This document shows, one piece after another, positions 426-3,913 of a stretch of 3,913 nucleotides of DNA. Positions within the stretch are counted from its first letter, which is position 1, and each line of letters opens with the position of its first letter. Under the pieces are notes generated by a model, which searched no databases, was not told where the DNA came from, and saw only the letters and a program-made list of their open reading frames with translations. A program made the position numbers and the translations under genes. The DNA comes from a virus (Duplodnaviria; Heunggongvirae; Uroviricota; Caudoviricetes), in IMG/VR virus record IMGVR_UViG_2684622669_000022, positions 1 to 3,913 of that record. One strand, 5' to 3'.

Positions 426-1133
426 ATGGATTTGAACAAATTCGATGAGCCATTCAGCCCTGAAGATATCGAATGGCGAATACAGCAAAGCGGTAAAACA
501 CGCGATGGCAAGGTGTGGGCTATGGTGCTGGCTTATGTCACGAACAGGGCAATCATGAAACGCCTGGACGATGTTTGCGGCAAAGCAGGATGGCGCAATG
601 AATACCGCGATATTCCCAACAACGGAGGCGTTGAATGCGGCATATCAATCAGGATTGATTCCGAATGGGTAACCAAATGGGATGCTGCTGAAAACACGCA
701 GGTAGAAGCCGTCAAAGGTGGTCGTTCCGGCGCAATGAAGCGCGCTGCCGTTCAGTGGGGAATCGGTCGGTATCTGTATAACCTTGAGGAAGGTTTCGCA
801 CAAACATCTCTCGATAAAAAGCAGGGGTGGCACAGGGCAAAACTGAAGGATGGAACAGGATTTTACTGGCTCCCTCCATCGCTGCCGGGATGGGCAATCC
901 CAGCATCAGATAACAAACCATCACCAGAAAATACCAACCAGAAATCTCCATCGGTTGACTGCGAACAAATCCTGAAAGACTTCAGCGATTATGCATCAAC
1001 AGAAACTGACAAGAAAAAACTCATCGAGCGTTATCAGCGTGACTGGCAATTAATGGCTGGCAACGAGGAGGCGCAGGCTAAATGCGTTCAGGTAATGAAC
1101 ATCAGAGTTAACGAACTAAAACAGGCGGCATAA
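426..1133 (+). CDS. Rad52-family (Sak-like) single-strand annealing recombinase
   Basis: 235-aa ORF with Shine-Dalgarno GAGGTG at 416-421. It contains the block AVKGGRSGAMKRAAVQWGIGRYLY, which matches the conserved KRAxxxFGxGxYLY signature of phage Rad52-like annealing proteins, and an upstream GxxGW motif. It sits directly before ssb, as is usual for phage recombination modules. Confidence 0.8.
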   Translation: MDLNKFDEPFSPEDIEWRIQQSGKTRDGKVWAMVLAYVTNRAIMKRLDDVCGKAGWRNEYRDIPNNGGVECGISIRIDSEWVTKWDAAENTQVEAVKGGRSGAMKRAAVQWGIGRYLYNLEEGFAQTSLDKKQGWHRAKLKDGTGFYWLPPSLPGWAIPASDNKPSPENTNQKSPSVDCEQILKDFSDYASTETDKKKLIERYQRDWQLMAGNEEAQAKCVQVMNIRVNELKQAA

Positions 1134-1640
1134 ATGGCAAGCAGAGGCGTAAATAAGGTGATTATCCTTGGTCGGGTAGGACAAGACCCGGAAGTTCGAT
1201 ACTCACCATCAGGAACAGCGTTCGCTAACCTGACAATAGCCACGTCAGAACAATGGCGAGATAAAAATACTGGCGAGCAAAAGGAATTGACTGAATGGCA
1301 TCGTGTTGCTGTATCCGGGAAACTGGCTGAGGTCGTGGGGCAGTATGTGAAAAAAGGTGATCAGATTTATTTCGAGGGAATGCTGAGAACCAGAAAGTGG
1401 AAAGACCAGTCAGGGCAAGACCGTTACACAACCGAGGTTCATGTCGGAATTAATGGCGTGATGCAAATGCTTGGCGGCATTGGCGACAGCAAACAACAAG
1501 CAGCCAGCAGGCAATCACAGAAGCCACAGCAGCAATCATCACCAGCACAACACAACGAACCTCCGATGGATTTTGACGACGATATACCCTTTGCACCAGT
1601 AACTCTCCCCTTCCCTCGTCACGCTATTCACGCAATTTAA
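1134..1640 (+). CDS. ssb: Single-stranded DNA-binding protein (phage SSB) with a 15-residue extension after the DDDIPF tip
   Basis: N-terminal OB-fold region ([23 protein letters not shown]...[15 protein letters not shown]...[19 protein letters not shown]...MQMLGG) is near-collinear with E. coli SSB. A short Q/S-rich linker is followed by [11 protein letters not shown]. The start ATG directly abuts the upstream TAA (1131-1133). Confidence 0.95.
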
Positions 1641-1642
1641 TC

Positions 1643-1647
1643 AGGAG
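1643..1647 (+). promoter_or_regulatory. Shine-Dalgarno (AGGAG) for the 1654 ORF
   Basis: AGGAG lies 6 nt upstream of ATG 1654. Confidence 0.6.
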
Positions 1648-1653
1648 AAAATC

Positions 1654-1950
1654 ATGCCAGCGCCTCTGTATGGTGCGGATGACCCGCGCCGCTGTTCCGG
1701 CAATTCCGTATCGGAGGTGCTGGATAAATTCAGAAAAAACTACGATCGAATAATGTCTCTACCGCAGGAAACGAAAGAGGAAAAGGAATTTCGCCACTGT
1801 ATATGGCTTGCAGAGAAAGAAGAACGCGAGCGAATTTACCAGACATCAATCCGACCATTCCGCAAAGCCACATATACCCACTTCCCTGAATATATCGACC
1901 CGCGCCTGCGTAATTACCGCTCACGCTATGGCGCTATCAGTAATGACTGA
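1654..1950 (+). CDS. Hypothetical prophage protein (98 aa)
   Basis: ATG start with a good Shine-Dalgarno. Lys/Glu/Arg-rich sequence with no motif I recognise. Co-oriented and tightly packed within the operon. Confidence 0.7.
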
Positions 1951-1960
1951 GGAATTTACC

Positions 1961-2125
1961 ATGAGAGGACTTGCATACAATCCCGGCATTCTTCCGGAAG
2001 AAATGATTATTCGCCAACGCGTAAAGCCAATGCCATCGAGAGAGGAATTGCTTAAGAGAAATTCTTCTCCGTCAGTGAATCAAAACAAATATCTGAATGC
2101 GATGTGGCGGAGTGGGAAGAAATGA
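1961..2125 (+). CDS. Hypothetical small protein (54 aa)
   Basis: ATG at 1961 is preceded by GAGGA (1949-1953) at 7-nt spacing. The ORF track extends this frame back to 1808, but that extension overlaps the 98-aa gene and has no ribosome-binding site. Its stop overlaps the next gene's ATG as ATGA (2122-2125). Confidence 0.5.
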
Positions 2126-2640
2126 AACGAATGACACTAATTGAGATGGATGGATTTCTGAAAGGTAAATGCATCTCATGTGATTTAAAGGTTAACGAAA
2201 CAAATGCTGAATATATGGTGCGTAAATTTGCTGAAGCTGAGGCCAAGTGCGCGGCGCTGGCAGCGGAGAATGCGGGGCTGAAGTCTGGCGCTATGGACGA
2301 AATCAAGGTTATCAACCGTGGAGGGCAGGCATATTGCGTAAAAGATGGAGTGCAAGTTAATCCCATGTATGCAAGAGGGTGGAATGACTATCGCGCAAAG
2401 TTTCTGCAATCAGACACCCCAGCCACCGATGCTTTCCTGGCTGAAGTACGAGCGCAGGGCGTGGATGCTGCTATAGAAGCTGCAAAAAATCTGGTGGCCC
2501 AAGAATATGAGTATAAGGATTTCAAAGCGGCGCAGAGTGATTGCTGTATGCACCCTGGTTCAGACCTGGTAGGGAAGGTTGAAATGACTGAGTGGTTAGT
2601 TGACTTTGCTTCCCAGCTTCGCAAAGGAGTGCGGTCATGA
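2122..2640 (+). CDS. Hypothetical prophage protein (172 aa, several Cys residues)
   Basis: ATG 2122 is preceded by GGAG (2109-2112). The ORF track begins at GTG 2104; I prefer ATG 2122 because of the ATGA overlap with the upstream stop. Contains CISC, YCVKDG and DCCMH; no family recognised. Confidence 0.7.
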
Positions 2641-3305
2641 GCAACATCGATAAACGCGCATTACGTCATAGCGCAGAAAGCATAATCGGCATTCTGGAAA
2701 ACATTGCCGGGTTCGAACCATCTGATATCGACGGCGACTCTGTAGAGCTCCGCTTTGAAACTGAGGACGGTTTCGATACTGGTTGTGACGTTAGCATTGT
2801 TGACCAGTGCCAGAAAACCGCTGATGTAGTTCGGGCGCTGCTGGATGAGCTGGAAAGAAACCAGCAATACATCAAACGCCGCGACCAGGAGAACGAGGAT
2901 ATTGCGCTAACGGTAGGGAAGCTGCGTGTTGAGCTGGAAGCCGCAGAGAACAACCTTATTGATAGTGAGTGCCATGTTGCTGAACTGGAAGAAGCGCTAC
3001 ACGATAAGCAGGCGTTACTTGAAGCATCAGAGAAGCGCATAGCAGAACTGGAAGCCGAACTTGTAAGCCAGACTTACAAGTTGAACGAGCTGTCGGGCAA
3101 CTCTCCGGTAACTCCGGATGGTTGGATAAGCTGTAGTGATCGAATGCCAAGCGAAGAAGATGTTTTGGTTTATTGCTCAGACACAAAAGAGCAGATGGTA
3201 GGGTTTCACAAAGGTAAAGGGTTATTTCAATTCTTTTACATGAATGGTGTTGAGGGGGTATGTGAGCCGTCACACTGGATGCCGCTACCAGAGCCTCCAC
3301 TTTGA
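2637..3305 (+). CDS. Ea22-like coiled-coil protein with a DUF551-like C-terminal domain
   Basis: ATG 2637 overlaps the upstream stop as ATGA and is preceded by AAGGAG (2624-2629). The protein has three parts: an N-terminal domain, a central Glu/Leu-rich heptad region (LDELERNQQ...AELEEALHDKQALLEASEKRIAELEAEL), and a C-terminal module ending in HWMPLPEPPL. That ending resembles the DUF551 tail of enterobacterial prophage Ead/Ea22-like proteins as I recall them. Confidence 0.75.
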   Translation: MSNIDKRALRHSAESIIGILENIAGFEPSDIDGDSVELRFETEDGFDTGCDVSIVDQCQKTADVVRALLDELERNQQYIKRRDQENEDIALTVGKLRVELEAAENNLIDSECHVAELEEALHDKQALLEASEKRIAELEAELVSQTYKLNELSGNSPVTPDGWISCSDRMPSEEDVLVYCSDTKEQMVGFHKGKGLFQFFYMNGVEGVCEPSHWMPLPEPPL

Positions 3306-3389
3306 AAGCGAAGCTTATACATATCTTTTACATCAGCAATCTATTGTTAATCTCCAATCAATGTTACGTTGTCATCTCACTCATGCTTT

Positions 3390-3394
3390 GGAGG
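3390..3394 (+). promoter_or_regulatory. Shine-Dalgarno (GGAGG) for the zinc-ribbon ORF
   Basis: GGAGG lies 7 nt upstream of ATG 3402; it is the best consensus match in the window. Confidence 0.65.
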
Positions 3395-3401
3395 TAGTGA
3401 T

Positions 3402-3581
3402 ATGTCTTGTCCAAAATGCGGTTCTGGAAATATTGCAAAAGAAAAAACAATGCGTGGATGGTCTGGTGATTATGTGTGCTGCGATTGCGGATACAACGAC
3501 TCTAAAGACGCATTTGGAGAGCGTGGTAAAAACGAGTTTGTTAAAATTAATAAAGAACGCGAAGGCAACGAAAAAAGCTAA
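3402..3581 (+). CDS. Small zinc-ribbon protein (59 aa; CPKC ... CCDC)
   Basis: MSCPKCGSGNIAKEKTMRGWSGDYVCCDCGY has two Cys pairs about 20 residues apart, followed by a Lys/Glu-rich tail. Strong Shine-Dalgarno. The ORF track starts it at TTG 3369, but ATG 3402 has the ribosome-binding site. It is the last gene before the terminator and xis, the position of ea8.5 in lambda. Confidence 0.7.
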   Translation: MSCPKCGSGNIAKEKTMRGWSGDYVCCDCGYNDSKDAFGERGKNEFVKINKEREGNEKS

Positions 3582-3645
3582 TTTATTTATTCATATATTA
3601 ATACAATGTAACCAATATTCGAATTGAAGAACTGAAAGAACACCA

Positions 3646-3668
3646 AGCCGCCTGATGGCGGTTTTTTA
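3646..3668 (+). terminator. Rho-independent terminator (GC stem, UGAU loop, T-tract)
   Basis: GCCGCC (3647-3652) pairs with GGCGG (3657-3661) around the loop TGAT, followed by six T residues (3662-3667). The reverse strand has no T-run after the hairpin, so it should act only on + strand transcripts. Confidence 0.6.
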
Positions 3669-3712: not shown

Positions 3713-3913
3713 ATGCAACACGAACTACAACCTGATTCACTGGTTGATTTGAAATTCATCATGGCTGATACTGGCTTTGGTAAAACCTTCATCTATGACC
3801 GGATTAAGTCCGGAGACCTGCCTAAAGCTAAAGTTATCCACGGGCGAGCAAGATGGTTATATCGTGACCATTGTGAATTCAAAAATAAGCTCTTAAGCCG
3901 CGCCAATGGGTAA
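3713..3913 (+). CDS. xis: AlpA-family excisionase / phage DNA-binding regulator (Xis)
   Basis: 66-aa ORF with GGAGA (3700-3704) 8 nt upstream. LVDLKFIMADTGFGKTFIYDRIKSGDLPKAKVIHGRARWLYRDHCEF fits the AlpA/Vis-type winged-helix pattern. It lies at the distal end of the early-left operon, where xis precedes int in lambdoid phages. Confidence 0.8.
   Translation: MQHELQPDSLVDLKFIMADTGFGKTFIYDRIKSGDLPKAKVIHGRARWLYRDHCEFKNKLLSRANG

Follow-up and report, generated by a model that had tools for sequence, protein, structure and literature searches.

The segment at positions 2637-3305 (+) of the window, as we call the whole 3,913-nt stretch of DNA that was analysed, is a real gene that encodes an Ea22-like protein made of an N-terminal module, a coiled-coil stalk and a C-terminal DUF551 domain. 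It is an already annotated member of a described family with a described architecture, and represents no new kind of system. We consider it reasonably probable that its product is an accessory protein of the Ea22 family in which an oligomeric stalk presents DUF551 binding heads, and which damps lytic growth. The gene and its parts are located as follows:

2637..3305 (+): complete Ea22-like gene, 222 aa plus stop codon (ORF, Pfam Ead_Ea22 and DUF551, identical NCBI protein)
2622..2640 (+): ribosome-binding site (AGGAG) and ATGA start/stop overlap with ORF 2122-2640 (read from the sequence)
2637..2822 (+): N-terminal module, aa 1-62, with a conserved first helix and then a variable alpha/beta part (AlphaFold2 model, relatives)
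2829..3092 (+): coiled-coil stalk, aa 65-152, 13 heptads in one register (heptad table, periodicity test, AlphaFold2 helix)
2931..3054 (+): three exact GARCTGGAAG decamers (2931, 2982, 3045) that read in frame as Glu-Leu-Glu (sequence match, shuffles)
3093..3122 (+): flexible linker SGNSPVTPDG, aa 153-162 (AlphaFold2 pLDDT, conservation)
3123..3302 (+): DUF551 C-terminal domain, aa 163-222, modelled as a five-stranded small beta-barrel
3149..3266 (+): variable DUF551 core, ORF nt 513-630, between DNA blocks kept in relatives (DNA and protein alignments)

The Ea22-like Gene and Its Assignment

The ORF list of the window gives 2637-3305 (+) as a 222-aa ORF with an ATG start. An AGGAG Shine-Dalgarno sequence is read 7 nt 5′ of this ATG, which overlaps the TGA of the upstream ORF as ATGA. 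The same 4-nt overlap with the upstream ORF is present in the gene calls on contigs L004 and L005 and also in the E. coli relative L001, and the coordinates of the gene are identical in independent gene calls on three public contigs. Alignment with the relatives in lambda, Phi24B and E. coli gave 40 nucleotide substitutions, and 30 of these are third-position changes in the 2637-3305 frame; as the third codon positions of this frame and of the antisense ORF 2666-3040 (-) coincide, the pattern cannot separate these two frames.

Both NCBI and UniRef hold a protein that is 100% identical to the product, named “ead/Ea22-like family protein [Escherichia albertii]” (P0001). The preliminary description had proposed, from the letters alone, an Ea22-like tripartite protein with a DUF551-type tail, and Pfam matched both families far above their cut-offs. 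PF13935 (Ead_Ea22) scores 78.1 bits (cut-off 27) over aa 2-139, covering profile positions 1-139 of 139, and PF04448 (DUF551) scores 66.9 bits (cut-off 22) over aa 162-221, covering profile positions 1-67 of 68. The tripartite plan thus stands, with an Ead_Ea22 match, a coiled coil and a separate C-terminal beta domain on a mobile linker; the sequence that had been quoted for the C-terminal ~60 residues is correct as well, and corresponds to the DUF551 match.

Other searches were less informative. PHROGs returned families of unknown function only. NCBIfam and PADLOC profiles gave only sub-threshold matches, to coiled-coil parts of SMC, Rad50, JetC and LmuB, and this resemblance was rejected as compositional. 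A PDB sequence search with the protein produced coiled-coil noise only; the tail is therefore without a solved relative.

The Coiled-Coil Stalk and Its DNA Reiterations

The central segment of the protein contains 19% Glu and 17% Leu, and its heptad register is unbroken over aa 65-152, which corresponds to 13 heptads. Of the 13 residues at heptad position a (V L I N V L L V L L I L L), 12 are strongly hydrophobic and none is charged. At position d (L N R I L A S L K S L Q L), only 6 of 13 are strongly hydrophobic, so that the oligomeric state cannot be read from the sequence. The hydrophobic power at period 3.5 was matched by 3 of 2000 shuffles, and AlphaFold2, run on a 52-sequence alignment, models a single helix from aa 54 to aa 153 with a block-mean pLDDT of 90-98 over aa 71-140. 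Heptads, periodicity and the confident helix all agree with what had been said of the central ~90 residues, namely that they are heptad-like and rich in Glu and Leu, and confirm the coiled coil.

The protein as a whole has a net charge of -27. The 90 residues of the stalk contribute -12 to it, a usual value for a coiled coil, and the idea of a DNA mimic, which the net charge had raised, was set aside.

Reiterations of GAGCTGGAAG/GAACTGGAAG had also been pointed out in the DNA of the stalk near 2931, 2982 and 3045, and exact GARCTGGAAG decamers were found at precisely those positions; three matches occurred in 0 of 200 shuffles. Allowing one mismatch adds a fourth copy at 2847. In frame, each of the four reads Glu-Leu-Glu (aa 71-73, 99-101, 116-118 and 137-139), and the DNA reiteration therefore mirrors a protein motif and not a DNA element. 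That the decamers instead serve a function in the DNA itself, for example in protein binding or recombination, and are not a by-product of coding, appears extremely improbable. Three exact copies exceed by far the ~0.01 expected by chance, but all copies read Glu-Leu-Glu in frame inside the heptad repeat, their spacing is irregular (84, 51 and 63 nt), they occupy a single strand, and the substitutions across the region are coding-like, with 30 of 40 at the third codon position.

The antisense ORF 2666-3040 (-) lies opposite the coiled-coil codons. It would encode a Ser-rich product of 124 aa, which matches phrog_13760 (E = 1e-36) and no Pfam family. We did not accept it as a gene. The frame was judged to be a by-product of the Glu/Leu/Ala codons, and probably represents a shadow ORF that has been called as a gene in some phage annotations.

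The N-Terminal Module, the Linker and the DUF551 Domain

In the N-terminal module, residues M1, I4, L9, R10, A13 and E14 are near-invariant. The AlphaFold2 model of this module (pLDDT about 65-77) has residues 6-23 as a helix and residues 35-41 and 47-53 as strands. At the other end of the stalk, the linker falls below a pLDDT of 50 over aa 154-159, and its sequence is kept across relatives.

The tail is modelled with a pLDDT of 90.8. When the model was compared by Foldseek with BFVD, its neighbours were almost only DUF551 proteins (best E = 7.6e-5, TM 0.74). Among solved structures, the nearest were Tudor, PWWP, SH3, KOW and Sm domains. The DUF551 fold is thus predicted, from the model, to be a small SH3/Tudor-like beta-barrel and not a known zinc fold; the likeness to Tudor, SH3, PWWP and Sm barrels is one of modelled structure only. 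The flanks of the domain have the form W-x7-P at its start and (T/S)HW-x-PLP-x-PP at its C-terminal end, and W163, P171, W214, L217 and P221 are invariant or nearly so in sets of 50 and 143 aligned domains.

Four proteins of 749-2519 aa (P0121, P0142, P0174 and P0190) were top-scoring against the 68-aa tail through 11-24 short stretches each. P0121 (2519 aa, 24 stretches), P0142 and P0174 were rejected as relatives, as they are repetitive, match many unrelated Pfam families and contain no significant stretch; P0190 follows the same multi-stretch pattern as these three scanned proteins. All four look like repetitive or low-complexity artefacts of the library.

Cysteine and Histidine Residues of the DUF551 Domain

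The spaced Cys and His residues of the C-terminal module had been suggested to form a metal site. Taken in its full form, this would make the module a Cys/His metal-binding (zinc) domain with the metal central to its function, which we regard as distinctly unlikely. Within the DUF551 core subtype of this protein, Cys180, Cys209 and His213 are certainly well conserved (94, 96 and 95% of 142 representative domains), and so are possible acidic fourth ligands (D175 87%, D182 87%, E185 95%). However, in the same 142 domains Cys166 reaches only 44% (Val in most of the others) and His191 only 24%, so that neither is conserved, and both vary even among close relatives, leaving three Cys/His positions and not the four of a four-ligand family. 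Even position 180 is occupied by Val, Ser or Arg in a few members of the subtype that keep Cys209.

Outside this subtype the residues disappear. Ea22-like proteins such as P0003, P0010, P0034, P0037, P0039, P0043, P0100 and others carry DUF551 alleles without both cysteines, the YfdS domain of K-12 has none, and YfdS and the Cys-less alleles still match DUF551; in these other cores, only the flanks are kept (W163 to P171; T/S-H-W214-MPLPEPP). As Cys180, Cys209 and His213 are confined to one core subtype while the other cores are Cys-less, a family-wide metal site is refuted. The five-stranded barrel, as modelled, would also resemble domains that are metal-independent (Tudor, PWWP, SH3, KOW, Sm). 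A Cys2-His(-acid) site specific to this subtype is unlikely.

Comparison with Known Ea22 and DUF551 Proteins

The combination of Ead_Ea22 and DUF551 defines the Ea22_V2 type of Stx phages (Goddard et al., 2024, PMC10834534), whose members include vb_24B_6c of Phi24B and L0140 of 933W. The Phi24B protein shares both Pfam domains with the protein described here (BLAST E = 5e-66). The stalks of the two are about 95% identical, both have the linker SGNSPVTPDGWISCS(D/E)RMP and the end HWMPLPEPP, and both genes lie in the early-left operon upstream of xis. They differ in length (222 aa here, 301 aa in Phi24B), since the present protein lacks a 63-aa segment that Phi24B has between stalk and linker, and in their N-terminal modules and DUF551 core subtypes. 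The adjoining recombination modules are also different: Rad52-like/SSB/Abc2 here, Exo/Bet/Gam in the Ea22_V2 Stx phages.

The protein also aligns with lambda Ea22 (NP_040612; BLASTP E = 4e-22). Both proteins match Ead_Ea22 and have the same tripartite plan of an N-terminal segment, a coiled coil and a C-terminal domain. Residues 68-101 (LLDELERNQQYIKRRDQENEDIALTVGKLRVELE) are nearly identical to lambda Ea22, as is the block LLDE-ERNQQYIKRRDQENEDIALTVGKLRVELE. The lambda stalk is shorter, and the lambda protein has no DUF551 tail: it ends in an alpha/beta domain that is dimeric and whose structure was determined by NMR (PMC10834534). The earlier attribution of a DUF551-type tail to Ead/Ea22-like proteins consequently holds for the protein under study, but has to be narrowed, such a tail being a feature of Ea22_V2 that lambda Ea22 lacks.

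YfdS, a small protein of the K-12 prophage CPS-53, is likewise encoded upstream of torI and ends in a DUF551 domain. Its Cys-less domain barely exceeds the DUF551 threshold (22.2 bits, cut-off 22) and has no pairwise similarity to the tail of the present protein, and its N-terminus resembles that of the neighbouring ORF 2122-2640, not that of the Ea22-like protein.

Exchange of Modules among Relatives

The modules of the protein (aa 1-62, 63-152 and 153-222) were compared separately with those of 120 listed relatives. Among these, the N-terminal module is either 82-100% identical or undetectable, the stalk is 86-98% identical or else about 49-67% identical with changes in length, and the tail is 91-100% identical, 36-62% identical where another DUF551 core is present, or absent. 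All three are at least 98% identical only in the E. albertii proteins P0001 and P0002. As judged by these identities, the three modules assort independently among relatives.

At the DNA level, identity to Phi24B and E. coli ATCC 43886 extends over ORF nt 198-512 and resumes at about nt 631-637 through 669, so that a non-matching DUF551 core (nt 513-630) is bracketed by identical DNA blocks. The protein alignment correspondingly has unrelated cores between the conserved flanks W163..P171 and H213-W214-MPLPEPP. Points of module exchange are thereby mapped to aa 62/63, aa 152/153 and ORF nt 512/631. None of 5426 complete E. coli genomes searched covers at least 80% of the gene. Partial DNA matches are found in 2952 of them, at up to 15 places per genome, and genes of the Ea22 type are in this sense very common.

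The same tail, 97-99% identical, is also fused to other N-termini. Among these are dATP/dGTP pyrophosphohydrolases (DUF550/DUF551) of E. coli prophages, e.g., P0284, which share the linker as well and whose N-terminal part is a MazG-like pyrophosphohydrolase and not an Ea22 stalk. When the tail subtype was clustered at 50%, 141 of 144 representatives matched DUF551, 5 of them also Ead_Ea22 and 1 a pyrophosphohydrolase; no further Pfam family was found in any of the 144. Among 142 representative proteins, 92% have DUF551 at the C-terminus and 20 are no longer than 100 aa, i.e., stand-alone. This mostly C-terminal and sometimes stand-alone occurrence suggests that the head has a function of its own.

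Operon Context and Proposed Function

The window belongs to a lambdoid/P22-like prophage of Escherichia albertii that is integrated beside dsdC. The gene order is cI, a HigB-like gene with two ORFs, N, small ORFs, the genes for a Rad52-like annealing protein, SSB, Abc2 and DUF2737, the 172-aa ORF, the Ea22-like gene, a gene for a 59-aa Lar-like zinc ribbon and torI, followed by the host genes dsdC-dsdX-dsdA. The Ea22-like gene is thus found in the early-left operon, with recombination genes on one side and the xis-type gene torI on the other. Three consecutive genes (1961-2125, 2122-2640 and 2637-3305) have start/stop overlaps of the ATGA form, from which it follows that the three are translationally coupled.

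The lysis-lysogeny decision, to which lambda Ea22 had been linked in the preliminary description, is also where the literature places these proteins (PMC7093339, PMC10834534). When ea22 is deleted from lambda or Phi24B, the latent period shortens and the burst grows, fewer host cells survive, and lysogenisation is altered (Dydecka et al., 2020, PMC7093339). In Stx phages, few genes are transcribed as early or as strongly as those of this type, which sway the outcome between lysis, hence toxin release, and lysogeny (PMC7093339). Full-length lambda Ea22 and P27 Ea22 are tetramers, and yeast two-hybrid surveys with lambda Ea22 yielded no partner, none being known for any Ea22 protein (PMC10834534).

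Taking these data together with the domains of the protein, the following mode of action may be proposed. The gene would be transcribed from the early-left operon (from pL, with N antitermination) after the recombination genes, and its translation would be coupled to that of the upstream gene. The stalk, a parallel coiled coil roughly 13 nm long with some 13 heptads, would drive oligomerisation, presumably into a tetramer by analogy with the purified lambda and P27 proteins. Each small acidic DUF551 beta-barrel would hang on a flexible Pro-rich linker, and the stalk would display two to four such heads, which may bind a putative host or phage partner. The net effect would be to slow lytic development and to favour host survival and lysogeny, as with the ea22 genes of lambda and Phi24B. 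From these analogies we infer the state of oligomerisation, the role of DUF551 in binding and the pro-lysogenic phenotype; since the N-terminal module, the DUF551 core and the 63-aa segment differ from the Phi24B protein that was tested, transfer of the phenotype is uncertain.

A different reading would place the protein in an arms race, where it would either counter defence systems or exclude competing phages, its swappable DUF551 core conferring specificity and its coiled coil avidity. Several observations would fit: the extreme shuffling of modules, with N-terminal module, coiled coil and tail each independent and of all-or-none identity; the replacement of the DUF551 core as a cassette between conserved DNA flanks; the presence of an identical tail on other scaffolds, including the dATP/dGTP pyrophosphohydrolase; the neighbouring anti-RecBCD gene abc2 and Lar-like restriction-alleviation zinc ribbon; the acidic nature of the protein (net charge -27); and the wide distribution of parts of the gene, which match 2952 of the 5426 complete E. 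coli genomes and as many as 15 places in one genome. Yet mosaicism is general in the non-essential region of lambdoid phages and is alone no sign of an arms race, PADLOC gave no real match beyond the weak ones to coiled-coil parts of LmuB and JetC, and in the literature no paper ties Ea22 or DUF551 to defence or anti-defence. We therefore hold this reading to be rather unlikely.

A more specific proposal can be made for the head. DUF551 would be a cassette-type specificity module with a hypervariable core and invariant protein and DNA flanks, swapped by recombination among Ea22 stalks, a dNTP pyrophosphohydrolase and stand-alone proteins, and its different cores would target different proteins of host defence systems or competitor phages. 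We deem this proposal unlikely as it stands. If it were true, proteins of the Ea22 type would constitute a large unrecognised family of multivalent inhibitors, and the subtype with Cys180, Cys209 and His213 could be a metal-dependent variant.

The copy described here is a naturally compact variant, in which the 63-aa insert is missing and the DUF551 core is of the Cys/Cys/His kind. Such a short variant, together with the map of exchange points, could help to design chimeras that locate the active module.

Other Features of the Window and of the Source Prophage

The recombination module at 426-1950 (+) encodes a Rad52/Rad22-family annealing protein (“Erf-like” in PHROG), SSB and a P22-type anti-RecBCD protein, Abc2, and its DNA is 97-98% identical to phages HK75, mEpX2 and Huey. 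No phage record covers at least 80% of the window, which is a mosaic.

ORF 2122-2640 (+) encodes 172 aa and matches phrog_614 and no Pfam family. Its true start is ATG 2122, which makes an ATGA overlap with the stop of the DUF2737 gene, and not the GTG at 2104 given in the program-made ORF list. Over its first 44 residues the product shares 73% identity with the start of YfdS from K-12, and the C-terminal part is unrelated to the DUF551 domain of YfdS; it is therefore another module-swapped protein.

Downstream of the Ea22-like gene, 3402-3581 (+) encodes a 59-aa CxxC...CxxC zinc ribbon, named Eag protein in RefSeq and weakly matching Lar restriction-alleviation proteins. It is the one clear candidate for a metal-binding protein in the window. 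A different frame, 3244-3627 (+), matches the same phrog_2945 as this gene (E = 6.5e-17). As two differing frames match phrog_2945, this suggests that the family contains mis-framed members. A terminator-like element (3645-3664, +), made of a GC-rich hairpin with a run of T after it, separates the zinc-ribbon gene from torI and would terminate the early-left transcript unless this is antiterminated.

The torI gene (3713-3913, +) encodes a protein 100% identical to TorI of the cryptic K-12 prophage CPS-53/KplE1, which is an excisionase and TorR inhibitor. CPS-53 holds the same chromosomal site in K-12, both prophages adjoining dsdC-dsdXA. In the source prophage (contig L004, 3885-5226), the HigB-toxin-like gene that lies between cI and N together with two ORFs lacking a Pfam match may be a moron, or else a toxin-antitoxin or defence insert.
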